Shown: one piece after another, positions 946-57,934 of the stretch
How the letters are laid out: each line of letters starts with the position of its first letter
Numbering within the stretch: the first letter of the stretch is position 1
Assembly: GCA_963695435.1 (NCBI GenBank)
Contig: OY968788.1
Span: 134,330-198,329 of the forward strand
Direction: 5' to 3'
Length of the DNA stretch: 64,000 bases
DNA from: an uncultured bacterium
GTDB lineage: Bacteria > Patescibacteriota > Kazan-3B-28
The notes under the pieces: generated by a model
The model's database searches: none
What the model was told of the DNA's origin: nothing
What the model saw: the letters and a program-made list of their open reading frames with translations, nothing else
Program-made: the position numbers and the translations under genes

Positions 946-1334
946 CCTGGATCCTCTGGTCAAGCCAGAGGATGACAGACGGGGGCTATAGGAGGAAATG
1001 TGGCCGGGTTGCCCCCGAAAAGCGCCTTTGGCGCCTCGGGGCTGTATCCCAAGAAATACAGTCTGGGAGCGAGAAAACCCTTGACTGGAAGCCGATTTTA
1101 GAGTATACTTAAGTGAAATGAGCTTGGGGGGTGGCATATTTCTAAATATCCACCTGTCTTATGAAAGTGTACCAAAAGATAATCGACTTTACGGGGATGG
1201 AGTTCAATCGGGAGAACCACCCAAGTTCCAGACTGCGTGAGCGGTCGGCTGATTATAAATCAAGAAAAGCATCAGGTAACAACAATGTTGCCCGCAATGT
1301 TCGAAGCATTTTCCAGAGCTTTTTAGGTTTCTAA

Positions 1335-2832: not shown

Positions 2833-5388
2833 ATGAGTGAACTCATGCCGTTTGGTCCCAGACACGAGATAGATAAGATTCGCCGTCAAATGAAGGCGCG
2901 GTCTTTGGGTAGAAAAGCAAAGAAGAGGGTTTTCACTTTTCTGTCTCGGTATGGCATCAATACTCCGCCAAAGTTGTTTTTGGCGGGGTTTATCGCCGTT
3001 CTTTTTGTATTCAGTTTCACGATGGCGGTGGTTTCAGTTGGACTTCCGAACCCTGCTAGATTGGTAATTTATGCGGCGACTGATTCGACTAAAGTATTCG
3101 ATCGTGACGGTGCCGTACTTTATGACATCTCAAACGGGAAAAACCGCACAACGATTCCTTTTGAGCAAATGCCTGAAGATTTGAAGAATGCAACTATCGC
3201 TATTGAGGATAAAGATTTTTATCATCACAACGGTTTTGATATCAAAGGATTTTTGCGCGGGACAATTTTGAAACCACTTGCGGGGCAAGGTTTTCAGGGT
3301 GGCTCAACAATTACCCAGCAGTTTGTGAAAAATGCGTTGTTAAGTTCGGAGAGAAGTGTCTTACGCAAAGCGCGAGAATTGATTTTGGCATTTGAGTTGG
3401 AAGCGGTTTATTCCAAAGATAAGATTTTGGAATTGTATTTGAATGAGATTCCATACGGCAGCGGGGCATACGGGGCGCAACAGGCGGCTAAAATGTATTT
3501 TGGGAAAGATGCCAAGGATATTAATTTAGCAGAAGCAGCGGTGTTGGCGGCGTTGCCGCAAGCACCGGGGAGATATTCCCCTTACGGACAAAATCCGGAT
3601 TTGCTGATGTTGCGTAAAGATTTGGTTTTGGCGCAGATGGAAAAGCAGGGCTACATCACCAAGGCGGAGGAGGTGGATGCCAAAAAGACGGAAATAAAGT
3701 TTCAACCTCGGAGGGATTCGATTCGCGCTCCTCATTTTGTAATGTATGTAAAAGAATTGTTGGCGGCGAAGTATGGCGAAAAGGTGTTGGAAGAGGGTGG
3801 ACTGCAAATCACCACTACATTAGATATTGATAAACAAAAGGCGGCGGAAGATACAATCGCTAATTTAGCGGAATCCAACAAAACGAAATACAACGCAGGC
3901 AACGCGGCGTTAGTTTCAATCGATCCAAATACGGGAGAGATTTTGGCGATGGTGGGGAGTAAAGATTATTTTGATATGGAGGCGGAAGGAAATGTAAATG
4001 TGGCAATTCGTGAACGGCAACCTGGTTCGTCTATCAAACCGCTTGTTTATGCCACTGCGTTCAAAAAAGATTATGCTCCTGCAACAATGCTGGTGGATGT
4101 GTCCACTGATTTTGGTCAGGGGTATCGGCCACGCAACTATGACGGAGGTTTTCGCGGACCGATTTCTGCTCGGGAGGCGTTGGGCAACTCTATCAACGTT
4201 CCTGCGGTAAAGACATTGGCGTATGCGGGGGTGCAGGACACGATTGATACTGCGCATGATATGGGAATCACTACGCTAAACGGCGGAGCAGACAGATACG
4301 GACTTTCGCTCACATTGGGAGGCGGAGAAGTTACTTTGTTTGATTTGACTCGCGCGTATGGTGTGTTTGCGACGGGCGGAAATCTGACACCGACAATGGC
4401 AGTTTTGAAAGTGACGGACAAATTTGGTCATGTGTTGGAAGAAAACGAACCTGAAAAATCTAAGCAAGTTTTGGATCCGCAGGTGGCGTATTTAATAAAT
4501 AGTATTTTGTCGGATGACAGTGCGCGCGCTCGAGTATTTGGAATGGGCGGGCTACTGACGTTGCCTGGCAGAACAGTTGCGGCGAAGACGGGTACAACAA
4601 ACGATTACAAAGATGGTTGGACAATAGGCTACACTCCTGATTTGGTGACAGGAGTTTGGGCGGGGAATAATCACAACGAAGAAATGACTGCCTCATCAGC
4701 AATGGTGGCGGCGCCAATGTGGAATAGATATATGAAGTTGGCACTGGCTGGTGTACCAAATAAATCTTTCAGCAGACCTGATGGAATTTCGGATGTGATG
4801 GTGGATGCCTTGTCGGGCAAGTTGCCGGTTGAAGGTGTGACGCCAACAACAAAGTCAGAAGTGTTTGCGAGCTGGAGCGTACCGAAAGAAATGGACAATG
4901 TGCATGTGGTGAAAAAAGTAATGAAGAGCGACACCAGCAAATTAGCACCAGCAAATGCACCTGCGGAATTAACTGAAGATAAAGTATTTACTGTAATTCA
5001 TTCGGAACGGCCGAGTAGTTCAAATTGGGAAGGTCCAGTTCTGGCATGGGCGGCGGCAAATGGATATAACAATGTCCCAACGGAAACTTATTCTGGTTCG
5101 ATGGATGGGAGTGCGACGGCGGAAATTACTTTGACGAATCCGATAGAGGGGGCAACGGTTACGGGAGATTTGTTAGTTTCAGCGAGTGTTAGAGCGGGGG
5201 TAGGTGTGAAGAGAGTTGAGTTTTATTATGATAATTCGCTGAAAGGACAGGTGACAGGAGCGCCGTATCAATTTACGATTAAAGCTCCCAAGCAAGACGG
5301 GAAGACACATACCGTTAGGGTTAGATTGCTCAAGGCTGATAATAGTACTGCAGAGGATAGTGTAAGTATTGTTGCTGGTGGAGGATAA
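2833..5388 (+). CDS. class A penicillin-binding protein (transglycosylase + transpeptidase) with a C-terminal Ig-like extension
   Basis: GT51 motifs EDKDFYHHNGFD and GGSTITQQFVKN; transpeptidase SSIKP (SxxK) and KTGTTND (KTG). Confidence 0.9.
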   Translation: MSELMPFGPRHEIDKIRRQMKARSLGRKAKKRVFTFLSRYGINTPPKLFLAGFIAVLFVFSFTMAVVSVGLPNPARLVIYAATDSTKVFDRDGAVLYDISNGKNRTTIPFEQMPEDLKNATIAIEDKDFYHHNGFDIKGFLRGTILKPLAGQGFQGGSTITQQFVKNALLSSERSVLRKARELILAFELEAVYSKDKILELYLNEIPYGSGAYGAQQAAKMYFGKDAKDINLAEAAVLAALPQAPGRYSPYGQNPDLLMLRKDLVLAQMEKQGYITKAEEVDAKKTEIKFQPRRDSIRAPHFVMYVKELLAAKYGEKVLEEGGLQITTTLDIDKQKAAEDTIANLAESNKTKYNAGNAALVSIDPNTGEILAMVGSKDYFDMEAEGNVNVAIRERQPGSSIKPLVYATAFKKDYAPATMLVDVSTDFGQGYRPRNYDGGFRGPISAREALGNSINVPAVKTLAYAGVQDTIDTAHDMGITTLNGGADRYGLSLTLGGGEVTLFDLTRAYGVFATGGNLTPTMAVLKVTDKFGHVLEENEPEKSKQVLDPQVAYLINSILSDDSARARVFGMGGLLTLPGRTVAAKTGTTNDYKDGWTIGYTPDLVTGVWAGNNHNEEMTASSAMVAAPMWNRYMKLALAGVPNKSFSRPDGISDVMVDALSGKLPVEGVTPTTKSEVFASWSVPKEMDNVHVVKKVMKSDTSKLAPANAPAELTEDKVFTVIHSERPSSSNWEGPVLAWAAANGYNNVPTETYSGSMDGSATAEITLTNPIEGATVTGDLLVSASVRAGVGVKRVEFYYDNSLKGQVTGAPYQFTIKAPKQDGKTHTVRVRLLKADNSTAEDSVSIVAGGG

Positions 5389-5419
5389 CGCCGTTTTTTG
5401 TTTTTTATTCTTTTTCTTT

Positions 5420-5535
5420 TTTGTCATTCCAGCGAAGGCTGGAATCTATTTTTATTTAATTGTTTTGAAGCGCCGAATCGCGCTTCAGCGATTGTTACTT
5501 TCCGCTTGAGGAAAGTAACCAAAGTCGCTCGCCAG
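5420..5535. repeat. composite dispersed repeat: family D hairpin followed by family A (two hairpins gaagcgccgaatcgcgcttc and gttactttccgcttgaggaaagtaac)
   Basis: A near-identical ~85-bp copy lies at 43975-44057. Partial copies at 6863-6900 and 36598-36625. Confidence 0.8.
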
Positions 5536-5712
5536 TCGCTTTCACTCTGAATCTCCCAAAATCCTCTCCATCTGCTTATCACCAAACTCGCTACGCTCAG
5601 ACATGGGCACGCTGATTGGAGGGATTTTGGGGATTCAGTACGCTCAAGCTCCAATGGCGGAAATAAAAGAGGATTGATACACTAATGGTGTAATAATTAT
5701 ATTATTGACAAT

Positions 5713-5730
5713 ATAACAATTTTGTTATAC
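5713..5730. promoter_or_regulatory. perfect inverted repeat tataacaa-ttt-ttgttata overlapping a ttgaca/tatact promoter-like region; probable TA operator
   Basis: Seen directly upstream of the HigB-like gene start at 5732. Confidence 0.4.
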
Positions 5731-5731
5731 T

Positions 5732-6034
5732 ATGAAAATAGAGCTGAAAGTTTTAGAATATGTTGCAGATTTTTTGGATGACTTACCAGTGGAGTTATAC
5801 GCTAGATGTGTAAAGAAGTTGAAGCTTTTTGAAGAATTTGGCTTTTTATTGTCAAAGACTGATCTAAAGAAGATCAATAAAAATATTTGGGAGTTGCGTC
5901 CGGGGGACATCAGAATTCTAATAGGTAAAGCGAAGGGCTGTATGTGGGCATTACACGCATTTCCCAAGACAAGTCAGAAAACGCCTATAAAAGAGATTAA
6001 GTTGGCAGACAAACGTTTAAGAGAATTAAGATGA
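5732..6034 (+). CDS. HigB/RelE-family (Gp49-like) type II toxin
   Basis: IWELRPGDIRILIG...HAFPKTSQKTP matches the Gp49/HigB pattern. Stop overlaps the next start (ATGA). Confidence 0.7.
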   Translation: MKIELKVLEYVADFLDDLPVELYARCVKKLKLFEEFGFLLSKTDLKKINKNIWELRPGDIRILIGKAKGCMWALHAFPKTSQKTPIKEIKLADKRLRELR

Positions 6035-6330
6035 GCAAGAAAAAATTCTACACAGTTAGTGAGATAGAAAAGAGAGCGATGAAGAGTCCGAGTTTTCGTC
6101 GGGCTTACGAAGCATTAGAGCCCGAGTATCAAATTGCTAGGGCGGTAATACAGGCGCGTCACAAAAAGGGGATGACGCAAGGAGAATTGGCTCGAAAGGC
6201 GGGAACTAAGCAACCTGTTATTGCGCGTTTGGAGAGCATGAAGAGCCCTGCTTCTTCCAAGAGTATGGGGCGAATTGCTCATGCACTTGATCTTCGCTGG
6301 GAACTAAAGTTAGTGCCGAAGACCAGATAA
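6031..6330 (+). CDS. HigA-like XRE-family HTH antitoxin
   Basis: GMTQGELARKAGTKQPVIARLE is a Cro/C1 HTH. 4-bp overlap with the upstream toxin gene. Confidence 0.7.
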   Translation: MSKKKFYTVSEIEKRAMKSPSFRRAYEALEPEYQIARAVIQARHKKGMTQGELARKAGTKQPVIARLESMKSPASSKSMGRIAHALDLRWELKLVPKTR

Positions 6331-6339
6331 CGGTTCTCT

Positions 6340-6415
6340 TTAGGTCACTAGGTCACTAATGGACTTATGGTCTGTCTATTTGTCTATGAGTCTATTGTCT
6401 ATTATTCTACCCTTG
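6340..6415 (+). repeat. family C repeat with reiterated gtctat/tggtct sub-motifs
   Basis: taggtcactaggtcactaatggacttatggtctgtctatttgtctatgagtctattgtctatt. The reverse complement of 22395-22470 is closely similar. Confidence 0.6.
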
Positions 6416-6512
6416 CTATATCTTATCCAAGCTGTTAGAGTGGGCACACACAATCCTGCTGTCCAGCAGGATTAGTGGATAAATATAATAGACTAATTCA
6501 AGGAGAAATATC

Positions 6513-6716
6513 ATGAATGATGATATGAATACCCCATTGGATCCAATGGCTGATCAGATGAAGTCTGAAGATGCCGATGCAGTAACTCCAGCAACTCCAG
6601 TCAGCGATGATGCTGAAATGGATGCTGAAGTGGTCGCCGAAGATGGCGAAGCCGAGGCTCCAGTAGCTCCAGTAGTGGAGGATAAGGAAGTCTCAGATGA
6701 GGAAGCTGCCGCGTAG
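6513..6716 (+). CDS. small highly acidic hypothetical protein (67 aa)
   Basis: ORF with D/E-rich composition followed by a clean intrinsic terminator. No recognisable domain. Confidence 0.4.
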   Translation: MNDDMNTPLDPMADQMKSEDADAVTPATPVSDDAEMDAEVVAEDGEAEAPVAPVVEDKEVSDEEAAA

Positions 6717-6726
6717 GTTTTAGGTA

Positions 6727-6765
6727 GTTTTAGGGAAAAACCGAGGTGGGAGCCTCGGTTTTTTG
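6727..6765 (+). terminator. rho-independent terminator
   Basis: aaaaccgaggtgggagcctcggtttttt. Confidence 0.75.
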
Positions 6766-6862
6766 TATAGATTTTTTTGTTTTCTTGTCCTCGGGCTTGA
6801 CCCGGGGATCCAAACATTTTTTTATTTAGTTTTTCAAGGGTCTGCGCGACCCTTGTACCGCG

Positions 6863-6900
6863 GTTACTTTCCGCTTGAGGAAAGTAACCAAAGTCGCTTG
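6863..6900. repeat. family A partial copy (gttactttccgcttgaggaaagtaaccaaagtcgct)
   Basis: Identical core hairpin to those at 5497-5535 and 44021-44057. Confidence 0.75.
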
Positions 6901-7098
6901 CCCACGTCGTCGGAACTATCAATTGGCAAAAATCATCTTTCCGCTAATGGTCGAAACTCGGTCGTAGCCACTCCCTCAAACATCTCCCCGCGGCGATGAT
7001 TTTACTCAATTGATTACATTCCTCCTCCTATGGCAGGGGAAGTTGACTGAGGGGAGGATTACTGATATAAGGGATATTATAGTAAACTGAATTAGGAC

Positions 7099-7437
7099 AT
7101 GAATTACTTTAAAGTTCTTCGCGACAAACTGGCTCGGATGCTATCAGAGCTGGTTTCAACGCAGGATATGGTTCCTAGAGAGCTCGCTGATTTACACGAG
7201 TATTTTAGGCTATATGGTCCTCTAGAGTTTGACTACTACAAGAGTGAAGATGGCTGGGTGGCTGTTAGTAAAAACTTTCGATATGGGAGCATTGTTGCAA
7301 ATGGGCGTACTGATAAAGAGCTAGAAAAAAATATTCCTGATGCGATTATGACAATGTTTGATTTGCCGTCTTCGTATGCCAAGGAGGCAAAGCTACATAG
7401 AGTTGGGGATTACAAAAAGGGGTATGCCTTCGCTTAG
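7099..7437 (+). CDS. HicB-like antitoxin (UPF0150/RNase-H-fold type)
   Basis: YKSEDGWVAVSKNF...GRTDKELEKNIPDAIMTMFDL resembles the HicB N-terminal domain. Overlaps the downstream HicA-like gene. Confidence 0.5.
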   Translation: MNYFKVLRDKLARMLSELVSTQDMVPRELADLHEYFRLYGPLEFDYYKSEDGWVAVSKNFRYGSIVANGRTDKELEKNIPDAIMTMFDLPSSYAKEAKLHRVGDYKKGYAFA

Positions 7438-7675
7438 TGAACTGCCGAGTGATATAAAAAGACCTAAACTTATTAGGGCTCTTAGTAGGGTTGGTTTTGA
7501 CATAAGTACACGAGGTGGCAACGGGACACATTATAAGGCTACTTGGCCCGTCACCCAGAAAGCCTTTTCTATCCCTATTAGATTAGATAAACAAACGCTT
7601 TATTACCTGTTGAAAGAGATTCAGATAGTCACAGGCGGTCAGGTTGATTGGGATACCATAAAAAACAATTTGTGA
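7424..7675 (+). CDS. HicA-like toxin (YcfA family)
   Basis: LIRALSRVGFDISTRGGNGTHYKAT matches the HicA motif (G-F...GSHhhf). Internal Met start chosen at 7424. Confidence 0.55.
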   Translation: MPSLSELPSDIKRPKLIRALSRVGFDISTRGGNGTHYKATWPVTQKAFSIPIRLDKQTLYYLLKEIQIVTGGQVDWDTIKNNL

Positions 7676-7701
7676 TACGACTTTACTAGGCGAGTTTTGG
7701 G

Positions 7702-8379
7702 GTGGGGTATAATCTAGACATGAGCCAGCTCCCAGCAATACAAATTGTTTCTAAACAGCGAGTCTCTGATCACGGAGAGGTTTTTACATCCGAGAGGGAG
7801 GTAAACGCGATGCTTGATCTCGTAAAGCAGGAAACGGAGCGTATAGACTCACGTTTTCTTGAGCCGGCCTGCGGGACTGGTAACTTTTTAGTCGAGATTT
7901 TAAAAAGAAAGTTAGAAATAGTTAAAGGACGATATTCAAAGAACCAGATCGAATTCGAGCGTTATTCGGTCATCGCAATCTCGAGTATCTATGGAGTGGA
8001 CATCTTAGAGGACAATGTTATTGCATGTCGAGAGAGACTATATTCTGTTTTCGATGAGCACTATAACTCACTTTATACGGATAGGTGTAAAAAGGAATGC
8101 AAAGTAGCCGTCAGATTTATCTTGTCTCGAAATATATTATGGGGTGATGCCTTGACTTTTAAAGAGCCAAACGAAGAGGCTCGGCCAATTATTTTTTCTG
8201 AATGGAGCGCGGTAAACGGCAATCTGATCAAGAGGCGGGATTATACATTGGCTAATCTTCTTGAGAATCGGTCTCCCGAGGAAGGGACTTTGTTCTCTGA
8301 TATGGGGGACCGAGCTTTTGTTCCTAGACCAATTGCAGATTTCCCTTTGACACACTTTTTAGGCCTTGGAGTAGAATGA
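7702..8379 (+). CDS. Eco57I-type N6-adenine DNA methyltransferase N-terminal module (motifs X and I only; truncated paralogue of the next gene)
   Basis: GEVFTSEREVNAMLDL and FLEPACGTGNFLVEIL (motif I), YGVDILE. No NPPY. 4-bp overlap (ATGA) with the next ORF. Confidence 0.6.
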   Translation: MGYNLDMSQLPAIQIVSKQRVSDHGEVFTSEREVNAMLDLVKQETERIDSRFLEPACGTGNFLVEILKRKLEIVKGRYSKNQIEFERYSVIAISSIYGVDILEDNVIACRERLYSVFDEHYNSLYTDRCKKECKVAVRFILSRNILWGDALTFKEPNEEARPIIFSEWSAVNGNLIKRRDYTLANLLENRSPEEGTLFSDMGDRAFVPRPIADFPLTHFLGLGVE

Positions 8380-9875
8380 TGCAGACAAGTTATAACCCAG
8401 ACGTATTATCCTGTCTTGCCAACCTAAGTAATGATGAAGTTTTCACTTCACCAGCACTAGTAAATCAGATTCTAGACCTGCTGCCGAGTGATTTGTGGCA
8501 GAATAAGGGGGCTAAGTTCCTTGACCCGGTTACTAAATCAGGTGTGTTCCTAAGGGAAATTGCCTCTCGTTTAATTGTTGGTCTGGAAAAAGAAATCCCA
8601 GATCTACAAAAACGCATAAACCACATTTATCAAAATCAGCTTTATGGCGTCTCTATCACCGAACTCACCTCGTTTTTATCTCGCCGAAGCGTTTATTGCT
8701 CAAAGACAGCCAAAGGCAAGTACTCAGTTTGTGATAATTTCAAAAATGAACAAGGTAATATCATCTTTGACCGCATAGAGCACGCATGGATGAATGGAAA
8801 ATGTAAGTACTGTAATGCGAGCCAATCACTACACGATAGAGGTGAACTATTAGAAACTCATGCATATCAATTTATTCATACAAATGAACCAAATAAAATA
8901 TTTAATAATATGAAATTTGATGTAATCGTAGGTAATCCACCCTATCAGTTAAATGATGCTGGTGCACAATCTAGCGCAAGCCCGATTTATCATTATTTTG
9001 TCGAGCAGGCTATTAAGCTGAAACCTCAATATCTTTCAATGATTATTCCTGCTCGCTGGTATTCGGGCGGAAAGGGGCTTGATGATTTTAGAAGTAAAAT
9101 GTTGAATGATGAGAGGATCTCTGAAATTCATGATTATCCAGAGACTTCTGATTGTTTTCCGGGATTGAATATTAGAGGTGGTGTTTGTTATTTTCTTTGG
9201 GATAAGGAGCATACCGGTAAGTGTAAAGTGACTACGCATAAATCTGGAACTGTTGGAAAAACAGTTGAACGATCTTTGTTGGAGAAAGGTAGAGATGTGT
9301 TCATTAGATACAATGAGGCAATAAACATTTTACGGAAAGTTCAAGCATCAGATGAAGATTCTTTTTCAAGCTACGTCAGCGTTCGCAAGCCTTTTGGTTT
9401 ATCAACTGACACTAAGGGTAGGCCAGAACATTTTAAAGATAGCGTAAAGCTCTATCAAAATGGTGGGGTTGGGTATATCAAAAGGTCAGAAGTGGCAAAA
9501 AATGCTGGGTGGATAGATAAAACCAAGGTAATAGTTCCATATTCTAGTCCCGGGGACGATTCGTATCCACATTTGATTTTAAGTAAACCGATTATTGCTG
9601 AGACTAACTCATGCAGTACGGAAACCTATTTAGTTGTGGGTCCTTTTGACTCGAAACTTACATGCGAAAACGTAAGCTCTTACCTTAAAACTAGATTTGT
9701 AAGATTCTTAATACTTCTTCTTAAGCCGACTCAGCACGTTACCCAGAAAACATATGGCTTTGTCCCTGTCCAAAATTTTAAAGAAAAATGGACGGATGAA
9801 AAATTGTATAAGAAGTATGGTATCACGCAAGACGAAGTCAAATTTATAGAGTCGCTGATTCGGCCGATGGATTAA
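8376..9875 (+). CDS. Eco57I/Type IIG-III-like N6-adenine DNA methyltransferase
   Basis: DEVFTSPALVNQILDLL, a degenerate motif I FLDPVTKSGVFLREI, YGVSITE, motif IV VIVGNPPYQ. Confidence 0.7.
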   Translation: MMQTSYNPDVLSCLANLSNDEVFTSPALVNQILDLLPSDLWQNKGAKFLDPVTKSGVFLREIASRLIVGLEKEIPDLQKRINHIYQNQLYGVSITELTSFLSRRSVYCSKTAKGKYSVCDNFKNEQGNIIFDRIEHAWMNGKCKYCNASQSLHDRGELLETHAYQFIHTNEPNKIFNNMKFDVIVGNPPYQLNDAGAQSSASPIYHYFVEQAIKLKPQYLSMIIPARWYSGGKGLDDFRSKMLNDERISEIHDYPETSDCFPGLNIRGGVCYFLWDKEHTGKCKVTTHKSGTVGKTVERSLLEKGRDVFIRYNEAINILRKVQASDEDSFSSYVSVRKPFGLSTDTKGRPEHFKDSVKLYQNGGVGYIKRSEVAKNAGWIDKTKVIVPYSSPGDDSYPHLILSKPIIAETNSCSTETYLVVGPFDSKLTCENVSSYLKTRFVRFLILLLKPTQHVTQKTYGFVPVQNFKEKWTDEKLYKKYGITQDEVKFIESLIRPMD

Positions 9876-9880
9876 TTAAA

Positions 9881-12385
9881 ATGAGTAAATTTTTTCCACA
9901 ACGGCCGGAGGCGAACCCAGCAATTTACGCCTACGAAGACACAAACCCACAATACGAGGGTTTATTAAAAGTTGGTTTTACCACTACGGATGCTCGAGCT
10001 CGAGTGGCACAACAATACCCAACACGACGCCCAGGGGTATTACCTTACAAGATAGTTTTTGAAGAATCGGCTATGCGCAATGATGGCACTATTTTAACTG
10101 ACCATGATGTGCATCGTTATTTGCGCAAAAAAGGTATCGCAAACCCCAAAGGAGAATGGTTTAAGTGCAGTATAAAGGAAATCACTGCAGCTGTATTGGC
10201 TATTAAGAGTGGCGTTAAGAACGAAGATGATCGGACTCTTAGTTTTAGCATGCGGCCAGAGCAAGAAGAAGCAGTAGAGAAAACTATTTCGTATTTTAAG
10301 AGCTTTAGTAAAGAGAACAAGGGTAAAACTCCACACTTTCTTTGGAATGCAAAAATGCGTTTTGGGAAAACATTCGCTACATATCAGTTGGCAAAAAAAA
10401 TGGGATGGAAAAAAATACTAGTACTTACATTTAAGCCGGCAGTGCAGAGTGCTTGGGATGAGGATCTTCAAACACACATCGATTTTAAGGGTTGGCAATT
10501 TATTGCACCAAATGGTTTAACATTTGGGAGAGCTAATAAGAAAAATCCTTTTGTGTGCTTTGGTTCATTTCAGGATTATTTGGGGAAAAATACATCAACA
10601 GGCGGGATTAAAACGAAGAATGAATGGGTGCATGCTACCAATTGGGATTGTGTGGTATTTGATGAATATCATTACGGAGCTTGGCGAGAGAATGCAAAGG
10701 ATTTATTTGAAGCAGAGGGGGAAAGAGAGTTGGAATTTGGAGAGGGGGAGGGTATTGAGTATTTTGATGAAGGTGCAATGCCGATCACTACTAACGCGTA
10801 TCTGTATTTGTCTGGTACGCCATTTAGAGCTATTGCGTCTGGTGAGTTTATTGAAGAACAAATTTTCAACTGGACCTATTCGGATGAGCAGCGGGCAAAA
10901 GAGAATTGGAAGGGTGAGCCAAACCCGTATGCTTCTTTGCCAAGAATGGTGATGCTGACTTATCAACTGCCTGATTCTATCCGTGAAGTTGCCATGAAGG
11001 GGGAATTTAATGAGTTTGATTTAAACCTCTTTTTTAGTGCGGAGGGACTAGGAAGGAATGCAAAATTTAAATATGAAGATGAGGTTCAAAAATGGTTGGA
11101 CTTGATTCGAGGCTCTTTTTCCGAAACAACGATAGATAATTTAAAATTGGGGGCAAAAAAACCACCATTACCTTTCTCACACGCACCTTTACTAAATGTT
11201 CTATCACATACATTTTGGTTCTTGCCAAGTGTTGCTTCTTGCTATGCGATGAGAAATTTACTTGAACAAAGGCAAAATAAGTTTTATCACAACTACAAGG
11301 TGATTGTTGCGGCTGGGACTAGCGCGGGAATTGGTGTAGCGGCGCTCCCGCCAGTACAGCAGGCAATGGAAGATCCTCTAAGCTCAAAAACCATAACTCT
11401 ATCTTGTGGCAAACTTACAACAGGGGTGTCGGTCAAGCCATGGACAGGGATTTTTATGCTACGTAATTCGTCAAGTCCTGAAACTTATTTTCAAGCGGCT
11501 TTTCGTGTACAAACGCCTTGGACCGTGAATAACCCTGATAGTAAATCGCCCAATAAAGAAGAGGTTATCAAACAAGAGTGCTATGTTTTTGACTTTGCGC
11601 CGAACCGAGCTCTCAGACAAATTGCCGACTACGGTTGCCGTCTGAATGTAAATGAGTCTAACCCTGAAAAGAAAATTGATGAATTTATCCATTTTTTACC
11701 TGTGCTTGCTTATGACGGTAGTGCCATGAAGCAAATTGATGCGGCAGGTATCTTGGATATGGCAATGAGCGGCACTACCGCCACCTTGCTTGCAAGAAGG
11801 TGGGAAAGTGCGCTACTGGTCAATGTCGATAACAACACCTTGCAGCGTTTGATGAATAACCAAGACGCGATGGATGCCTTAATGAGTATTGAAGGTTTCC
11901 GTAGTTTAAATAAAGACATTGAGACTATTATTAATAAATCGGAAGCTGTACAAAAAATAAAGAAAGAGGCAAACGATAAAGAGTTAACTCCCAAGAAAGA
12001 GAAAGAGTTGAGCAAAGAGGAGAAAGAGTACAAAAGTATAAGAAAACAGATTCAGGAAAAACTTATAAAATTTGCTACTCGCATTCCGGTATTTATGTAT
12101 CTAACTGATTATCGCGAGAGAAGCTTGAAGGATGTTATTACCAAGCTTGAACCAGGTTTATTTAAAAAAGTAACAGGTCTTTCTGTTAAAGATTTTGAAC
12201 TATTGGTTAGCCTTGGTGTTTTTAATAGCGCACTCATGAATGATGCGGTGTATAAGTTTAAGAGATATGAGGACGCAAGTCTAGCGTATACGGGTATTAA
12301 TAAGCATGAGGGTGAGGATATTGGTCTTTATGACACAGTTATCAGTAACAAAGAATATAGGCAGACATTTGAAAATCATGAATAA
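9881..12385 (+). CDS. T5orf172 (GIY-YIG-like) domain fused to an SF2/ResIII-type helicase; candidate restriction (Res-like) subunit
   Basis: N-terminus IYAYEDT..EGLLKVGFTTTDARARV..GEWFKCSIKEI (T5orf172 pattern). Helicase motif I MRFGKTF, motif II VVFDEYHYG, motif III LSGTPFR, motif VI QAAFRVQTP. K/E-rich C-terminus. Confidence 0.7.
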   Translation: MSKFFPQRPEANPAIYAYEDTNPQYEGLLKVGFTTTDARARVAQQYPTRRPGVLPYKIVFEESAMRNDGTILTDHDVHRYLRKKGIANPKGEWFKCSIKEITAAVLAIKSGVKNEDDRTLSFSMRPEQEEAVEKTISYFKSFSKENKGKTPHFLWNAKMRFGKTFATYQLAKKMGWKKILVLTFKPAVQSAWDEDLQTHIDFKGWQFIAPNGLTFGRANKKNPFVCFGSFQDYLGKNTSTGGIKTKNEWVHATNWDCVVFDEYHYGAWRENAKDLFEAEGERELEFGEGEGIEYFDEGAMPITTNAYLYLSGTPFRAIASGEFIEEQIFNWTYSDEQRAKENWKGEPNPYASLPRMVMLTYQLPDSIREVAMKGEFNEFDLNLFFSAEGLGRNAKFKYEDEVQKWLDLIRGSFSETTIDNLKLGAKKPPLPFSHAPLLNVLSHTFWFLPSVASCYAMRNLLEQRQNKFYHNYKVIVAAGTSAGIGVAALPPVQQAMEDPLSSKTITLSCGKLTTGVSVKPWTGIFMLRNSSSPETYFQAAFRVQTPWTVNNPDSKSPNKEEVIKQECYVFDFAPNRALRQIADYGCRLNVNESNPEKKIDEFIHFLPVLAYDGSAMKQIDAAGILDMAMSGTTATLLARRWESALLVNVDNNTLQRLMNNQDAMDALMSIEGFRSLNKDIETIINKSEAVQKIKKEANDKELTPKKEKELSKEEKEYKSIRKQIQEKLIKFATRIPVFMYLTDYRERSLKDVITKLEPGLFKKVTGLSVKDFELLVSLGVFNSALMNDAVYKFKRYEDASLAYTGINKHEGEDIGLYDTVISNKEYRQTFENHE

Positions 12386-14882: not shown

Positions 14883-14936
14883 GGTAGAGGAGCAAGCAAA
14901 AAGGAACTTTTGTTTTTCTATTTGTTTTATCTTTGC

Positions 14937-14975
14937 ACAATTAGCTGAACGGCCGTTCAGCTAATTGTGAGGGTA
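14937..14975. repeat. 35-bp palindromic element caattagctgaacggccgttcagctaattgtg (copy 1)
   Basis: Perfect palindrome ttagctgaacggccgttcagctaa. A second copy lies at 15510-15545. Confidence 0.8.
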
Positions 14976-15045
14976 TTTTTTAAATATTTGTGTGTTTTTT
15001 GATATTTTTCAATATTTTTGAAGTAATTTGGGGGTATGATAAAAG

Positions 15046-15517
15046 GGTGAAGAACAGTCGGGGGGCGTACAGACTGATGAAAGCATTGTTCCGTTTGATG
15101 GACGGCAATGGTGTAGTCCGACTCAATAAACATTGGCAAGAAAAACTTCGCGACCCTCGCCAACATGGCGATGGTCGCTCGTTTAAATATTTGCGTGATG
15201 CGGAATATCTTATTGAGCTGGGGCCGGATAAATATGAAGTGACGGATTTGGCAAAAATTAACTTATTGAAAGAAATTGTTAAGACGCGTAAGAGGGACGG
15301 GAAGTTGAGGCTTGTGATTTTTGATATTCCTGAAAGATTGAAAGCGAATAGAAATTTTTTCCGTCGGCATTTGGTGGATATGGAATTTCAGATGAGACAG
15401 CAAAGTGTATGGGTATCGCCATATCCATGCGAGGACTTAGTTGCTTTGGCTGTGAAATATCACGGTTTGCAGAAATATGTCGAACTAATAGTCGGCAAAG
15501 TAGGCACAATTAGCTAA
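15046..15517 (+). CDS. winged-helix regulator with C-terminal Cas2-like (PaaX-like) domain
   Basis: C-terminal LRLVIFDIPERLKANRNFFRRHLVDMEFQMRQQSVWVS follows the Cas2/PaaX_C pattern (LVxYDI...R..FRR.L...GF...Q.SVW). Start is ambiguous (GTG at 15046 or ATG at 15077). Confidence 0.55.
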
Positions 15518-15545
15518 ACGGCCGTTCAGCTAATTGTGTAGGGGA
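15510..15545. repeat. 35-bp palindromic element copy 2 (overlaps stop codon of the preceding gene)
   Basis: caattagctaaacggccgttcagctaattgtg. Confidence 0.8.
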
Positions 15546-19638: not shown

Positions 19639-19800
19639 CGTCGAAATGGCTTCGCCCGACGCGCGAACAAGTAAAACTTGTTCGGCTATTGAGGCTCAGC
19701 ATTTCTCCTTTCAAAATCACAAACAGTCGTTTTACTCCTTGGTTTGCGATTTTGGCTTAGGGGAGGACATAGTTGACAGATAGGGCGACCTATTTCATAA
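19639..19800 (+). repeat. post-tRNA conserved element, family B copy 1 (ends in a ttgaca-17-cataat promoter)
   Basis: cgtcgaaatggcttc...cggctattgaggctcagcatttctcc...ccttggtttgcgattttggctt...ttgaca. The homologous copy lies at 54925-55100. Confidence 0.75.
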
Positions 19801-19814: not shown

Positions 19815-19960
19815 CCCCGTAGAGAAATTTAGAACGCCCTTGGGCTAAAGCTATATTCTCTGCGGAAAAGCATGATTCTGATGAGTTATCGTTAGGGCAG
19901 GTTTATTAGGATAATGCCCAAGGCGAGGAGAGAATATAACTTCTAAATTCTTCTACGGGG
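19815..19960 (+). repeat. MITE-like structured element, family F copy 1, forming the 5-prime leader of rplK
   Basis: ccccgtagagaaatttagaa ... agagaatataacttctaaattcttctacgggg (terminal and internal inverted repeats). The second copy lies at 41303-41450. Confidence 0.75.
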
Positions 19961-19961
19961 T

Positions 19962-20463: not shown

Positions 20464-21282
20464 ATGCTAGAGAAGAAAGTTGTCACTAAAAAAGTGACGA
20501 AGAAGGCGGTTAAGAAACCTAGTGCGGGAGATGAATCCTCCTACGCCAAGGCTACGAAGGACATCGGAGCTAAGAAAAAGATAGCTCCTCGTAAGTTTGG
20601 GCGAGGGAAGAAATATCTCGCTGTTTTGCCGAAGGTAGATAAGGAAAAGTTTTATCCGGCAGATGAGGCGATTAAGTTAGCGCAGGAAACTTCCCCGAGC
20701 AAATTTGATGCAACGATAGAGTTGCATGTTTGTATGGGGTTGGATCCAAAGAAGCCTGAGCAAAATATCCGCGGAACTGTTTCGATGCCAGCCGGAACGG
20801 GCAGAACTAAAAAGATCTTGGTTTTGGCGGAGGAAGCAGATGCAAAGAAAGCATTGAGCGCGGGAGCAGATTACGCTGGTCTTGAAGATATGATTAAGAA
20901 AATCCAAGAAGGTTGGATGGATTTTGATTTGGTAATTGCAACACCAACAGCAATGCCTCAAGTTGGAAAACTTGGGCAGACATTGGGGACCAAAGGTTTG
21001 ATGCCAAATCCAAAATCAGGAACTGTTGCGCCTGATGTCGCGAAGGCAGTTGAAGAATTCAAAAAAGGAAAAGTTGAATTTCGTTTAGACAAAGACGCGA
21101 TTATTCATTTGGGGTTTGGGAAAGTTTCATTTAAGACAGAAGATTTGATGACGAACTTCAAAACGATTGTGAGCGCTATTCAATCGGCGAAACCTGCGGC
21201 GTCTAAAGGGTCTTACATCAAACGGATGTCAGTGGCTTCGACGATGGGGCCGGGGATCAAAATCGATCTTCAATCAATCTAA
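20464..21282 (+). CDS. rplA: 50S ribosomal protein L1 with Lys-rich N-terminal extension
   Basis: ELHVCMGLDPKKPEQNIRGTVSMPAGTG. Confidence 0.92.
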   Translation: MLEKKVVTKKVTKKAVKKPSAGDESSYAKATKDIGAKKKIAPRKFGRGKKYLAVLPKVDKEKFYPADEAIKLAQETSPSKFDATIELHVCMGLDPKKPEQNIRGTVSMPAGTGRTKKILVLAEEADAKKALSAGADYAGLEDMIKKIQEGWMDFDLVIATPTAMPQVGKLGQTLGTKGLMPNPKSGTVAPDVAKAVEEFKKGKVEFRLDKDAIIHLGFGKVSFKTEDLMTNFKTIVSAIQSAKPAASKGSYIKRMSVASTMGPGIKIDLQSI

Positions 21283-21284
21283 AG

Positions 21285-21390
21285 CTCTCGAGAGAAGAAC
21301 GAAGGTATGTTCCTCTCTCGACGCTCGTGGGCAAAGCCCATTTCGACAAGTCGAAACAAGCTCACTGCTCTTACCTCCACCTAAAAGATA
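21285..21390 (+). repeat. ~105-bp structured repeat, family G copy 1 (directly after rplA stop)
   Basis: ctcgagagaagaacgaaggtatgttcctctctcgacgctcgtgggcaaagcccatttcgacaagtcgaaacaagctcactgctcttacctccacctaaaaga. Almost identical to 23564-23668. Confidence 0.85.
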
Positions 21391-21520
21391 GAAAAGGAGA
21401 CCGTCCTGCTGTACAGCGGGGCGGTTTTTGTTTGGTGTATAATTTGGGTAAGGAACGACCGACCGATTTTGTAGGGGGCGGGGTTTCGGTATTGTAACTT
21501 ACAAATGAGGAGGTGAGGGG

Positions 21521-22183
21521 ATGCCTCACAGGAAGAAGGATCTGGAAAAGATTCTCAAGAACTTCTTCGTTTTCGAAGGTATAGACGGCTGTGGCAAAGG
21601 AACACAGACGCTGTTGCTAAAAGATCTCCTCGAGCACCATGGGTACGAGGTCTTAGCGACAGAAGAACCAACCAACGGAGAGATAGGCCGTAATATTCGG
21701 CGGGTTCTAGGAGAAGATGAGGGGATTATCAGACCGTCTATGGAGGTGTTGCAGTGTGAATGGTACACACAAGATAGACGGGAGCACCAATTCGAAATTC
21801 GTCGTGCTTTGGGTGGTGCAAAAAGAGTGGTTTTATGTGACAGATATTATCACTCAACCATCGCCTATGGTGCTGCCGCCAAGGACAACGTGCCGTTCGA
21901 TAAGACCTGGACGGTCAACCAAGAGTTCTACAAGCCGGGACTAACGATCTGGCTGAAAATTCCTCCCAAGGATGCGTTCAGAAGGCTCAACTCGCGAAAG
22001 CGCGACCTGTTTGAGAAGGACCCAGACTTTCAGATGAGGGTCCATCAGGAGTATGAGCGGCTGGCGGCGAGACCCGAGTTTTCGGAGATCGTGACAATTG
22101 ACGCCTCTCGATCCGTGGAGTTGGTAGCGCTTGATGTCCAAAAAGTAGTGGCTGCGCATTTAAACCCGCAGCGCGCTGCCTAG
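21521..22183 (+). CDS. tmk: thymidylate kinase
   Basis: FVFEGIDGCGKGTQ P-loop; DRYYHS. Confidence 0.85.
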   Translation: MPHRKKDLEKILKNFFVFEGIDGCGKGTQTLLLKDLLEHHGYEVLATEEPTNGEIGRNIRRVLGEDEGIIRPSMEVLQCEWYTQDRREHQFEIRRALGGAKRVVLCDRYYHSTIAYGAAAKDNVPFDKTWTVNQEFYKPGLTIWLKIPPKDAFRRLNSRKRDLFEKDPDFQMRVHQEYERLAARPEFSEIVTIDASRSVELVALDVQKVVAAHLNPQRAA

Positions 22184-23017: not shown

Positions 23018-23560
23018 ATGGAGAATATTATGGCAGATGAAAATACAATTCCAGAAGAGCAAGCTCCAGAAGCTTCCACCTCCGCTGAAGCTACGGTGGA
23101 CGTTCCGGTAGAAGCTCCAAAGGAAGATAAGAAAGTAGACAGTATGTCTACTGAAGCCTCGGCGAAGGTAGATGCAAGCAAGTTGTCAGGCAATGCCAAA
23201 AAAGTTTTGGACATGGTTAGTGAGATGACAGTGCTTGAGTTGGCTGAGCTCGTGAAAGTATTGGAAGACAAGTTCGGCGTGAGTGCCGCGCCTGTTGCCG
23301 TTGCCGCCGCTGGTGGTGCTGGTGCTGGAGCTGCAGCCGTCGAAGAGAAGAGCGAATACAACATTAACTTGGTTAATGCTGGTGCCAACAAAATCAACGT
23401 GATTAAGGCAGTTCGCGAAGTGACCGAGTTGGGCTTGAAAGAAGCCAAAGACTTAGTCGAAGGCGCACCAAAAATGGTGAAAGAAAATGTAAAGAAGGCG
23501 GACGCAGAAGAGATTAAGAAGAAATTAGAAGCCGCAGGTGCCAAAGTCGAGTTACAATAA
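23018..23560 (+). CDS. rplL: 50S ribosomal protein L7/L12 (with acidic N-terminal extension; true start may be internal)
   Basis: Ala/Gly-rich hinge and [28 protein letters not shown]. Confidence 0.9.
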
Positions 23561-23563
23561 AAT

Positions 23564-23668
23564 ATCTCGAGAGAAGAACGAAGGTATGTTCCTCTCTCGA
23601 CGCTCGTGGGCAAAGCCCATTTCGACAAGTCGAAACAAGCTCACTGCTCTTACCTCCACCTAAAAGAA
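23564..23668 (+). repeat. family G copy 2 (directly after rplL stop), followed by terminator at 23680-23710
   Basis: ~99% identical to 21285-21390. Terminator is gaagccccgccgaaaggcggggcttttt. Confidence 0.85.
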
Positions 23669-23817
23669 AGAATAAAGAAGCCCCGCCGAAAGGCGGGGCT
23701 TTTTGGTCTCTATTTGACCTTGGGGGCAGATGTGCTATCTTGCGGGTGGCGTGTTTTTGGCTCTAGAAGCCAAAAAGCGACTACTAGCTATTTGACATTT
23801 AGAAGGGGGTGATAACA

Positions 23818-34162: not shown

Positions 34163-34256
34163 ATATATAGTATAGATCCTTCCCCCGACAAGTCGGGGTC
34201 GAGGATGACAAATTTTTATGAGATTCTGAAATAAATTCAGAATGACGGGATAATAC
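34163..34256. repeat. family E partial copy 3 plus gattctgaa..ttcagaatgac hairpin
   Basis: tagatccttcccccgacaagtcggggtcgaggatgacaaa matches the 3-prime half of 1335-1428. Confidence 0.6.
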
Positions 34257-36503: not shown

Positions 36504-37138
36504 ATTTTTCTTTTTCTTTATTCTTTTTTGTCATTCTGAACTTATTTCAGAATCTTTTTATTTATTTTTTCCAGCACTCACGCCGTGCTGATGGTGGCGG
36601 TTACTTTTCTAGAAAAGTAACACAAAAGTTCCCGCCAGTCGTCGGGATTGTTCGCCCCTGCCTACCGGTAGGCAGGTAACAAAATTAGCTTTCTTCGCTA
36701 TCGGCAAACTCCCCCGATAGCCATCGGGGTCAAACATGCCTTCGCCTGCGCTAATTTTGTCGGCTCAATACATCCCTCCTCCAATGGCGGACTAAAGAAA
36801 GGATGGGGGATAAAAAACAGTCCTGCACTTGGGGCAGGACTGCTTGGTTCGGGTGGAGATGAGCTACAACCGTATCTGGCGAAAGGCGCGGTGGTACTTT
36901 TCCGAACCAACGGACAAAGGTGCGGCTGTTTTTTGCGATGGGAGGAGTTGGAAATTATTTTTTCCAGAAGTCCAGTGTCGGGTGTGTGAATATCAAGGGG
37001 GGATGAGGGGTAGACCGAGTATCCCTAGCAGGAGGGCTGGTCTACATTGAAGCCGACATTGGAATATCTCCGCACCTAATCGCAAAAATGTGCCGCAATG
37101 AATTGTAGCACTTATCTGATAGTAGGCAATAGAGGGTC
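36504..37138. other. 635-bp non-coding region dense in palindromes/hairpins (candidate structured ncRNA or repeat cluster)
   Basis: No ORF above 75 aa. Hairpins gtcattctgaa..ttcagaatc, gttacttttctagaaaagtaac, cctgcctaccggtaggcagg, cagtcctgcacttggggcaggactg. Confidence 0.4.
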
Positions 37139-41302: not shown

Positions 41303-41450
41303 CCCCGTAGAGAAATTTAGAACGTCTTGGGCGTAGATTATATTCTCTGATGGGGAAATACAACCACAACTGGTTTGTAATGCTATAGTTGAAGGTTCAT
41401 ACATGTCCAAGCCGAGTGAGAGAATATAATTTCTAAATTCTTCTACGGGG
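41303..41450 (+). repeat. family F copy 2, forming the leader of ftsA
   Basis: ccccgtagagaaatttagaacgtcttgggcgtagattatattctct...gagagaatataatttctaaattcttctacgggg. The last g is the first base of the GTG start at 41450. Confidence 0.75.
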
Positions 41451-43940: not shown

Positions 43941-43975
43941 GCGAGAGACGACCGCTAATTGGCGGTCGTTTTCTT
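43941..43975 (+). terminator. rho-independent terminator
   Basis: gagacgaccgctaattggcggtcgttttcttttt. Confidence 0.7.
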
Positions 43976-44057
43976 TTTATTTAATTGTTTTGAAGCGCCG
44001 AATCGCGCTTCAGCGATTGTTACTTTCCGCTTGAGGAAAGTAACCAAAGTCGCTCCC
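43975..44057. repeat. family A copy 2 (two-hairpin element)
   Basis: tttatttaattgttttgaagcgccgaatcgcgcttcagcgattgttactttccgcttgaggaaagtaaccaaagtcgct is near-identical to 5452-5535. Confidence 0.85.
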
Positions 44058-44250
44058 CACTCACAAATTGCTATCCAAAATAGAAAATCAGACCTTTCTG
44101 GACTATACGCTATACTCGCTACGCTCAAACAACGCTATCCATACCGGCTGATTTTCTAATTGGATAACGCAATTTGCTCGATGGGGTTGGGACAAAGGAG
44201 AAAGCCCGGCGCGGAGACGCAGGGCTTTGAGGAATGCAGGTTTGGGCATG

Positions 44251-44448
44251 TTAGCCGGCACCCCAGTGCCAGTGTGGTGATACTGGTGGATTTCCTGTTA
44301 CTACGTCTAGCTGGTAGAGGCCTAGACATATTAGGATGACTGTAGCAAAGAGCCCGATGTTATAAGCCCAATTGACCCACTTTGCCTTGCCGAGTAGGGG
44401 CATCAGCAATAAGAGACCTGCTGACATGGTCAGCGCAACAATGTTCAT
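44251..44448 (-). CDS. small hydrophobic membrane protein (65 aa), hypothetical
   Basis: Two TM helices. Downstream hairpin on this strand (aagcccggcgcggagacgcagggctt). Confidence 0.4.
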   Translation of the reverse strand: MNIVALTMSAGLLLLMPLLGKAKWVNWAYNIGLFATVILICLGLYQLDVVTGNPPVSPHWHWGAG

Positions 44449-44687
44449 GATTGACTCCGATGGTACAAATTCATCAGCAGTGTAAGGGAGGGTGGGGATA
44501 AAAGCAAGGGATAGGTGGTGTGAGAGCTGATTTAGGGTAGTACAAGATATAGGGGTATTATTAGTCTTACATACACAACATACGGTAGAGAGTAGAGTTT
44601 AGAGAGTAGAGTCTGGCTGGTAACTCTTGGAACTTGTTTGTAAATTTTTCTCTATTCTCTCGTCTCTGTTCTCTAATCTCTAATTTT

Positions 44688-57887: not shown

Positions 57888-57934
57888 AGAATAGAGAATA
57901 GAGAATAGAGAATAGAGAATAGAGAATAGAGAAT
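57883..57934. repeat. tandem heptamer (agagaat) x7 filling the uppS-rseP gap
   Basis: atagagaatagagaatagagaatagagaatagagaatagagaatg runs from the uppS stop to the rseP ATG. Confidence 0.9.

Follow-up and report, generated by a model that had tools for sequence, protein, structure and literature searches.

What kind of element recurs behind the genes of an uncultured Patescibacterium of the lineage Kazan-3B-28? In a 64,000-nucleotide stretch of its DNA (GenBank assembly GCA_963695435.1, contig OY968788.1, positions 134,330 to 198,329), which we refer to as the window, a preliminary description had pointed to a dispersed hairpin repeat and likened it to repetitive extragenic palindromic (REP) sequences and bacterial interspersed mosaic elements (BIMEs), or else to a small-RNA family. 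The window is an ordinary bacterial chromosome segment with a GC content of ~45%, a strong positive GC skew and nearly all of its genes on the + strand, including those for TyrRS, PBP1A, HigBA, trigger factor, L1, S2, SecF, HisRS, FtsZ and NrdR, and its nearest relatives are Saccharibacteria/Patescibacteria metagenome-assembled genomes (MAGs). The finding is more substantial than first described, and its kind is that of bacterial interspersed structured repeats. We found a discrete unit with a covarying fold, placed next to terminators, that related genomes gain, lose and replace and that has neither a promoter of its own nor a partner gene nearby. In our judgement, which is evenly balanced, the element would be a non-coding, non-autonomous, structure-dependent dispersed repeat of Patescibacteria that accumulates behind terminators, is analogous to REPINs (hairpin-forming pairs of REPs) and neisserial intergenic mosaic elements (NIMEs), and has a mobiliser acting in trans.

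The reported copies were all present where they had been placed, and the four-copy repeat is confirmed as real and far beyond chance. The hairpin pattern GTTACTTT-N(4-14)-AAAGTAAC matched the window at 5494, 6863, 36600 and 44019, always on the + strand, against zero matches expected from 100 shuffles, and the 36-nt string made up of the hairpin and CAAAGTCGCT occurred exactly three times with none expected. A second hairpin, D (GTCATTCCNGCGAAGGCNGGAATC), lies at 915-938 and 5423-5446, again with none expected. A repeat finder run on the window returned an 89-nt block with its reference copy at 5449-5537, which shares 98% identity with 43974-44062 and 67% with 6818-6906; this bears out the claim that a block of ~85 bp is nearly identical at two loci 38 kb apart (copies 1 and 4). 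It also holds that all copies are intergenic and downstream of genes, the upstream + strand genes being those for PBP1A, a small acidic open reading frame (ORF), SecF and FtsZ. The repeated hairpin of the described "two-hairpin ~85-bp block" is thus real, but the unit is longer and one of its two hairpins (A1) is optional: when 300 nt around each copy were aligned, the conserved unit reached 5662, 7038, 36792 and 44189, some 140 nt to the right of the reported block.

The core of this unit, which is ~155-200 nt long, is a 10-bp hairpin (GTTACTTTcc/ggAAAGTAAC) joined by a CAAAGTC linker to a long imperfect rod closed by CGCCA/TGGCG. On the strand of the preliminary description, the hairpin and CAAAGTCGCT are followed on the 3' side by the motif CGCCAGTCG, a long hairpin, an internal CTCAAACA and the closing motif CTCCAATGGCGG. 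The arms of the long hairpin are wholly different among copies, yet they pair in every copy, and the closing motif covaries with the CGCCA with which it pairs (CGCCA/TGGCG, CCCCA/TGGGG and CGGGCA/TGCCCG). Read 5' to 3' on the better-folding strand, the - strand of the window, CCGCCATTGGAG opens the long imperfect rod, whose internal loops are conserved and purine-rich (AUUGGAG/CGAC and GAGAACGGAAAG) and whose end is formed by a simple hairpin at the tip or else by a UGUUUGA-hairpin-GAGUU junction; CUGGCGG then closes the rod and is followed by GACUUUG and the 10-bp terminal hairpin GUUACUUUCC..GGAAAGUAAC. After the terminal hairpin one strand continues with CAAAGTC and the other with AGAAA or AATTA, and neither strand has a U-tract there. 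The unit ends, CCGCCATYGGAG... and ...GGAAAGTAAC, are not inverted repeats, and extra CCATTGGAG modules, repeated about every 30 nt upstream, adjoin many copies. A coding reading was rejected, as small ORFs across the copies are unconserved whereas the base pairs covary.

To search for the core we used a covariance model, R1, built from 18 Patescibacteria copies. This structure-aware scan of the window, run with filters off, recovered exactly the four copies (101, 82, 56 and 50 bits) and no fifth. Copy 1 has its core at 5489-5662 on the - strand (full-length match, 101.1 bits, E = 2e-23), with a minimum free energy of -70.9 kcal/mol (z = -6.6). Pattern matches place its conserved 10-bp hairpin, GTTACTTTCC-GCTTGA-GGAAAGTAAC, at 5494-5519, directly before CAAAGTCGCT; the A1 hairpin (tgaagcgc/gcgcttca), read directly at 5466-5487, is variable, clade-specific and outside the core. 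Copy 2 has its core at 6858-7038 (- strand, 81.8 bits, E = 1e-18), and in A1's place, at 6835-6855, stands a hairpin of other sequence (caagggtc/gacccttg). Copy 3, at 36595-36792 (- strand, 50 bits, E = 7e-10), is diverged, with the pattern-matched hairpin GTTACTTTT-CTAG-AAAAGTAAC. Copy 4 lies at 44014-44189 (- strand, 56.5 bits, E = 2e-12); its left block is 98% identical to that of copy 1, and the rod sequences of the two are unrelated. Because the A1 hairpin has another sequence in copies 2 and 3 and is missing from most relatives, we regard it as accessory and not as part of the core.

In a plain MAFFT alignment of all 35 copies, RNAalifold gave only two helices, the rod being too variable, so that a subfamily alignment and the model were needed. 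On a plain MAFFT alignment of the subfamily, RNAalifold returned the terminal hairpin and a multi-helix rod with compensatory double changes in 24 of 37 pairs. The model-based alignment of 64 distinct sequences had 95.2% of its cells paired, compared with 74.9% in shuffles (0 of 500 reached the observed value), and double changes in 33 of the 37 pairs; controls in which the 3' partner was shifted by 1-3 columns gave 35-48%. The window copies also fold far better than dinucleotide shuffles (z -4 to -9). The strand originally described is not the one that folds best, its reverse complement being more stable in 35 of 35 copies. Consensus pairs on the - strand include 45 G·U against 9 A·C, a count for which the alignment leans towards the model, and isolated 1x1 mismatches from a strand-symmetric folding restricted to Watson-Crick pairs comprise 14 G·U and 1 A·C. 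The usual leading-strand C-to-T mutation bias predicts the opposite pattern. Given the better energy and the excess of G·U over A·C in two tests, we take the window - strand to be the folding strand with moderate confidence.

The family extends beyond the window. At least 42 further full-length copies were found in other Patescibacteria loci, from at least 10 other MAGs and from metagenome contigs. Scanning 185,579 species genomes with the pattern GTTACTTT-N(4-12)-AAAGTAACCAAAGT gave at least 80 loci where we estimate that chance would give fewer than one, and about half of the matches listed are Patescibacteria (Kazan, Saccharibacteria and unclassified) with the whole hairpin-plus-rod element. 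R1 detected at least 35 further full-length copies in the genome loci. Elements are also present in 7 of 80 metagenomic ftsZ loci, six of which R1 scored (three strongly, and three weakly from variant hairpins); the seventh, in locus L086, was missed by R1 and read directly from the sequence. A gathering-threshold scan of the window against Rfam 15 gave only tRNAs, a permissive scan of 5350-7100 (copies 1 and 2) gave nothing relevant at E <= 10, and a gathering scan of 18 related loci gave only tRNAs and one SECIS. BLAST of the element found no match in 72,556 plasmids or 50,697 phages; a literature search with the hairpin sequence found no match, and keyword searches on repeats and RNA motifs of the candidate phyla radiation (CPR) returned nothing specific.

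Comparison of relatives shows that these copies come and go. Three copies, two on different Kazan METE01 contigs and one on JBAZHL01, are 98-99% identical over exactly CCGCCATYGGAG...GGAAAGTAACA and have unrelated flanks, sharp edges, no terminal inverted repeats and no visible target duplication. Locus L076 is syntenic with the window at ~83% nucleotide identity; its element downstream of secF is 93% identical to window copy 1, not to the copy 3 that the window has there, and its spacer between a PD-(D/E)XK gene and hisS is ~470 nt long (an element plus a truncated older copy), compared with ~40 nt in the window. The ftsZ-nrdR spacer was compared in relatives at 90-94% FtsZ identity, and the window FtsZ is 93% identical to that of a 521-kb JBAZNQ01 scaffold; a look-up with the exact window FtsZ protein gave no record. 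In L088 the element is missing from this spacer, where the ftsZ terminator is present; a rod like that of copy 4 occurs in L086, L089 and L090, with the variant hairpin GGCACTTTTTG/CAAAAAGTGCC in L089 and L090 and the same hairpin interrupted by extra sequence in L086; L087 has a copy-1-like element; and L091 has a compensatory hairpin variant, GATAC/GTATC. Where the hairpin varies, the half-repeat that follows it co-varies with the hairpin arm (CAAAGT becoming TCAAAAAAG). Among the metagenomic ftsZ loci, more distant relatives have no element downstream of ftsZ.

When 873 nearby ORFs were compared all against all by BLASTP, no protein family recurred near the copies. Among the 30 window ORFs scanned there was no transposase, reverse transcriptase or integrase, and neither these nor TnpB/IscB appeared as a conserved neighbour of the copies, whose neighbours are unrelated housekeeping genes. 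Each of the four window copies has a canonical + strand terminator immediately upstream, and - strand terminator hairpins ~10-20 nt from the element adjoin copies 3 and 4 as well. With flanking terminators so close, the unit lies in transcriptionally quiet DNA that leaves no room for a promoter of its own, and promoter scans of the window copies gave nothing convincing on the - strand. On the folding strand, the neighbour on the side of the 3' hairpin is a convergent gene, with its 3' end towards the element, in 29 of 37 cases, and the neighbour on the 5' side is a divergent gene in 19 of 29, which places the element between co-directional genes and antisense to them. In Saccharibacteria the hairpin begins 3-10 nt past the stop codon, and in L045 the stop codon TAG overlaps the element, its G being common with GTTAC.

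The D hairpin before copy 1 (5423-5456, + strand) is dRS3-like and, with its T-run, terminator-like for the PBP1A gene (terminator scan 5426-5445 plus CTATTTTTAT; fold -12.2 kcal/mol). Upstream of copy 2, 6740-6826 (+) holds two hairpins with a T-run after each (fold -37.7 kcal/mol, z = -4.8), the second of which (6787-6811) is D-like. A D hairpin with a T-run, at 36530-36565 (+; hairpin 36530-36554), lies downstream of secF and upstream of copy 3, and on the other side of that copy an intrinsic terminator on the - strand (36807-36845, hairpin plus UUUUUUAU; fold -18.7 kcal/mol, z = -6.1) ends ~15 nt before its minus-strand 5' end. Directly upstream of copy 4 is the ftsZ terminator, a 12-bp hairpin with a T-run (43943-43985, +; scan 43945-43972 plus CTTTTTATTT; fold -19.1 kcal/mol), and a GC-rich hairpin with a weak U-run, which follows a small - strand ORF, abuts the copy at 44201-44228 (-; fold -18.3 kcal/mol, z = -4.0). 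The solitary D hairpin GTCATTCCCGCGAAGGCGGGAATC (915-938, +) has the exact dRS3 pattern ATTCCCN8GGGAAT. D-type hairpins look like intrinsic terminators, having a GC-rich hairpin, a T-run and a same-strand gene upstream (5426-5445 and 43945-43972), whereas the core (A2) hairpin and rod, which lack a U-tract, do not. On the + strand the D tetraloops are GAAG, GCAG or GTAG (G-N-A/R-type).

The proposed linkage of the D hairpin to the repeat extends beyond the window, a D-type hairpin lying within 160 nt of the hairpin end in 19 of 41 elements, in constant relative orientation; three have it on the other side and none has it inverted. D-type hairpins additional to those first listed occur in the window at 36530-36554 (the + strand hairpin linked to copy 3), 34222-34246 (-) and 950-976 (-), and the D hairpins of relatives carry other hairpins nested in their loops. 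A separate 20-nt palindrome, CCTGCCTACCGGTAGGCAGG, lies inside copy 3 at 36657-36676 and also interrupts element remnants in L076. Its family (CCTGCCTNCCGGNAGGCAGG) is inserted in elements or remnants at that window position, at ~2880-2900 and ~4640-4660 of L076 and in a flank in L070. Together, the D hairpins, nested palindromes and extra modules form an arrangement that resembles NIME or BIME mosaics.

How might such a unit spread? We propose that it propagates as a discrete unit of ~155-200 nt whose spread or retention would hinge on how one strand, of DNA or RNA, folds. An enzyme acting in trans and recognising this single strand in its folded form would drive the spread, as the REP-associated tyrosine transposase (RAYT) does for REPINs, and the compensatory changes would then mirror selection in favour of copies still capable of being propagated. 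The space behind terminators, often between convergent ones, would offer a transcriptionally quiet "safe haven" in which copies could pile up with other small palindromes into NIME- or BIME-like mosaics. Several observations weigh against this proposal. It is from the distribution of copies alone that we infer mobility: no mobilising enzyme, transposition intermediate or target-site duplication was found, nor was a clean pair of empty and filled sites at high identity, and the replacement of copies at orthologous sites could be recombination between copies and not transposition. The strand asymmetry is partly compositional, since shuffling leaves about two thirds of the energy difference in place (the folding strand is G-rich; z -6.9 versus -6.0). 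Moreover, the best-folding strand here is the leading-strand template, the opposite of what single-strand transposition of the IS200/IS605 type predicts, and strong compensatory evolution together with conserved purine-rich loops is also expected of a functional RNA.

This last point leads to the reading of the element as a structured non-coding RNA family transcribed from the window - strand, antisense to the flanking genes, which we consider rather unlikely. The very strong covariation over at least 40 copies would suit it, as would the G·U excess and better folding of the - strand, the conserved single-stranded motifs containing GGA, the ~30-nt spacing of the CCATTGGAG modules upstream of many copies, and a related hairpin that in Fusobacteria and Firmicutes stands in the - strand orientation just before gene starts. 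A possible variant is an RNA that sponges a protein or acts as a regulator, in which the purine-rich loops (AUUGGAG, ACGGAAAG) and the additional tandem "CCAUUGGAG" modules would bind a protein, for instance a CsrA-like factor. The repeated unit, however, begins exactly at the foot of the rod and is promoter-less, only ~10-20 nt separate the - strand terminator from the element in copies 3 and 4, the - strand promoter scans were unconvincing, and close relatives gain, lose and swap copies, so that genomic positions are unstable. The small-RNA alternative of the preliminary description likewise gained no positive support from a unit that lacks a promoter and a U-tract terminator, is bordered by terminators on one side or both and has no Rfam match. 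An unlikely role is that of a host cis-acting 3'-end element of the upstream gene, acting on the + strand by reinforcing termination, insulating neighbouring operons or shielding the 3' end of the mRNA against exonucleases, functions that have been suggested for REP/BIME sequences. The co-oriented, gene-downstream position in 29 of 37 cases, the Saccharibacteria hairpins close to or overlapping stop codons, the presence of an element downstream of ftsZ in several lineages and folds that are very stable on either strand would fit such a role. Yet a canonical terminator, a hairpin with a T-run, precedes each window copy, and + strand transcription reaching the copy should therefore be slight; the A·C mismatches fall on the + strand, L088 has the ftsZ terminator without an element, and one copy in L076 lies between divergent genes.

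Less probable still is that the element is a palindrome-associated transposable element (PATE) of the IS200/IS605 type, or a REPIN proper, moved as single-stranded DNA by a Y1/HUH transposase (TnpA or RAYT). The asymmetric unit ends, with hairpins at both of them, the lack of terminal inverted repeats and of an obvious target duplication, the strong orientation bias with respect to genes and replication, and the hairpins nested within hairpins are all in keeping with this origin. The GC skew, though, puts the better-folding strand on the leading-strand and not the lagging-strand template; the two end structures are dissimilar, the junction has no constant 4-5-nt target motif (the hairpin-side flank is often TTTCT, not constant), there is no GTAG tag, and neither the window ORFs scanned nor the surroundings of any copy showed a Y1 transposase. 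The reading that the copies stem from a recent gene conversion or local duplication restricted to the window region, suggested by the 98% identity of the 89-nt block in copies 1 and 4, has practically no chance of being right: it is refuted by the copies in other Patescibacteria loci, and the rods of copies 1 and 4 share a fold with no relation in sequence. We also rejected retroposition like that of short interspersed nuclear elements, for which an A-rich tail on the folding strand had been considered, because the T-run belongs to the upstream terminator and there is no target duplication. Group IIC introns target terminators; the element is far too small to be one and is without intron ends.

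The dispersed repeat that we favour is best placed by comparison with known systems, for which the REP/BIME label is a reasonable analogy, while membership in REP, NIME or MITE (miniature inverted-repeat transposable element) families fails on defining features. What holds of the label "REP/BIME-like" is the multi-copy, intergenic, palindromic, mosaic and gene-downstream behaviour; what does not hold is the formal definition of a REP, which asks for a palindrome of 20-40 bp that carries GTAG or CGTC as an unpaired tag at one of its ends (PMC3733652). The unit here is 152-198 nt long, GTAG occurs anywhere in only 5 of 35 copies, and the motif that is both conserved and unpaired, CAGTCG, continues into CGTC in just 10 of 35. 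REPINs and REPs are extragenic, multi-copy and non-autonomous, are predicted to form long imperfect hairpins in single-stranded DNA or mRNA, sit for the most part downstream of coding regions and between genes that run in one direction or converge, and persist as families whose variation preserves structure (PMC3116915, PMC3733652). The element is likewise multi-copy, extragenic and non-autonomous, a long imperfect hairpin downstream of genes that keeps its structure despite variation. It seems to differ in not being a doublet of two inverted 20-40-bp REPs, its rod being a long imperfect inverted repeat whose arms carry different conserved internal-loop sequences, asymmetrically placed, with a separate terminal hairpin attached; its hosts are Patescibacteria; and no RAYT was found in the window ORFs scanned or beside the copies (64-kb window, 2-11-kb pieces of relatives).

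NIMEs, reported to be Neisseria-specific, consist of RS blocks flanked by dRS3 inverted repeats of the pattern ATTCCCN8GGGAAT (PMC1797815). The D hairpin follows the dRS3 pattern ATTCCCNNNNNNNNGGGAAT exactly, 918-937 reading ATTCCCGCGAAGGCGGGAAT, and 11 more exact matches occur in related loci; here too small GC-rich palindromes alternate with lower-GC repeat blocks of 50-200 nt from many families, in arrays that grow and vary among relatives (PMC1797815). Unlike in NIMEs, D hairpins lie on one side of the element (19 versus 3 of 41), so there is no dRS3-RS-dRS3 bracketing and there are no arrays of RS blocks flanked on both sides by dRS3, and the element's "RS" block has a strongly conserved secondary structure. 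The element resembles ERIC/IRU, Correia, BOX, RUP and bcr1 (MITE-like) sequences as an intergenic long stem-loop of 100-200 nt, in or near 3' untranslated regions, whose presence varies among strains. It differs from them in lacking terminal inverted repeats and target-site duplications, as read at the junctions of the 98-99% identical copies, and in having rod sequences that are wholly different among copies while the fold is kept. We know of no insertion sequence (IS) related to the element. Integron attC sites share conserved ends, a variable and imperfectly palindromic centre, one functional folded strand and a position downstream of ORFs; we rejected this identification, as the element does not have the R''/R' core-site consensus (RYYYAAC/GTTRRRY), its hairpin start GTTAC breaking GTTRRRY, and lies among housekeeping genes with no cassette array or integrase.

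Outside Patescibacteria, the matches listed include multiple copies of the hairpin-CAAAGT module, frequently at contig ends, in Oscillospiraceae, Eubacteriales, Fusobacteriaceae, Acinetobacter, Lysobacterales, Bacteroidota and others. R1 matches only the hairpin in these phyla, at ~30 bits; several copies have a downstream rod with AAAAT/ATTTT arms or the UGUUUGA-hairpin-GAGUU junction, a motif visible in copies from Fusobacteria, Acinetobacter and Lysobacterales. The genes beside the hairpin there are unrelated (a glycosyltransferase, a major facilitator superfamily transporter, AsnS, RsgA and others), and the related hairpin of Fusobacteria and Firmicutes, oriented as on the - strand, is located a short way upstream of gene starts. 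In copies from outside Patescibacteria, complementarity between the hairpin loop and the 3-7 nt that follow CAAAGT is more frequent than in any of 200 shuffles, and a loop/3'-flank pseudoknot was rejected as a core feature since the complementarity is only ~2 nt in Patescibacteria copies. From these sequence resemblances, homology of the hairpin module across phyla is plausible. It is conceivable, if doubtful, that the hairpin-CAAAGT module with the "AACTC-hairpin-TCAAACA" junction constitutes an undescribed cross-phylum folded class, either structure-dependent mobile DNA of a new kind or a structured RNA that is widespread and absent from Rfam. Five viral contigs with the hairpin pattern were judged unrelated, being iteron-like AAGTAAC arrays in phage DNA. 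An Acinetobacter MAG (L003, 6246-6310) and the IMG/VR phage loci L081-L085 hold direct and inverted iteron-like arrays of AAAGTAAC(C), which have the hairpin motif and resemble protein-binding iterons (AAAGTAACC arrays).

Other features of the window lie beside the copies or apart from them. Copies 1 and 2 bracket, in the region 5732-12385, a HigB/HigA toxin-antitoxin pair and the small acidic ORF, directly downstream of which is a defence-like/restriction-modification block with an MmeI/Eco57I-type methylase and a T5orf172+ResIII helicase. Between copy 4 and nrdR, a small hydrophobic ORF of 65 aa is read on the - strand (44251-44448), and similar - strand ORFs occupy the same place in L087 and L089. 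A 113-nt direct repeat (21281-21393 and 23560-23672, 97% identical, 2.3 kb apart) falls in the region that holds a thymidylate kinase gene (21521-22183) and flanking ORFs. Immediately downstream of tRNAs at two loci 35 kb apart are repeats of 74 nt (19639-19712 and 54928-55001, 78%) and 28 nt (19735-19762 and 55050-55077, 96%), which may be a conserved tRNA trailer or processing element. The 35-nt palindrome GCACAATTAGCTGAACGGCCGTTCAGCTAATTGTG, at 14935-14969 and 15504-15538 with one base differing (97%), brackets an ORF with a PaaX_M (Cas2-like) domain (14990-15517) in a way that looks like operator sites or element ends. Purine repeats of the AGAGTAGAG type lie upstream of genes at 2643-2669, 44589-44615 and 57888-57935, one of them just before nrdR, as upstream of nrdR in L093. 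A 34-nt repeat, GAGAGAATATAAYTTCTAAATTCTTCTACGGGGT (19928-19961 and 41418-41451, 97% identical), stands just upstream of two + strand ORFs. Locus L092, which is without the element, has a ~34-nt tandem repeat, tttccctccgttcgtcgggacctggtacagcggg, in several full and variant copies ~480-640 nt downstream of ftsZ and upstream of nrdR.

Genomes of Patescibacteria (CPR) are ~1 Mb in size and are usually called streamlined. Despite this streamlining, the window carries one folded repeat (~250 nt) per 16 kb in addition to several kinds of small palindrome behind terminators. For genome analysis, many copies lie at contig ends and break MAG assemblies, the elements give rise to spurious ORF calls, and they flag rearrangement hot spots beside the core genes ftsZ, secF and PBP1A; R1 is a ready covariance model for annotating Patescibacteria genomes. 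If the elements are RNA, a large and strongly covarying family is missing from Rfam. If instead the family is mobile, a mechanism of transposition or copying that works on folded single strands would operate in Patescibacteria.

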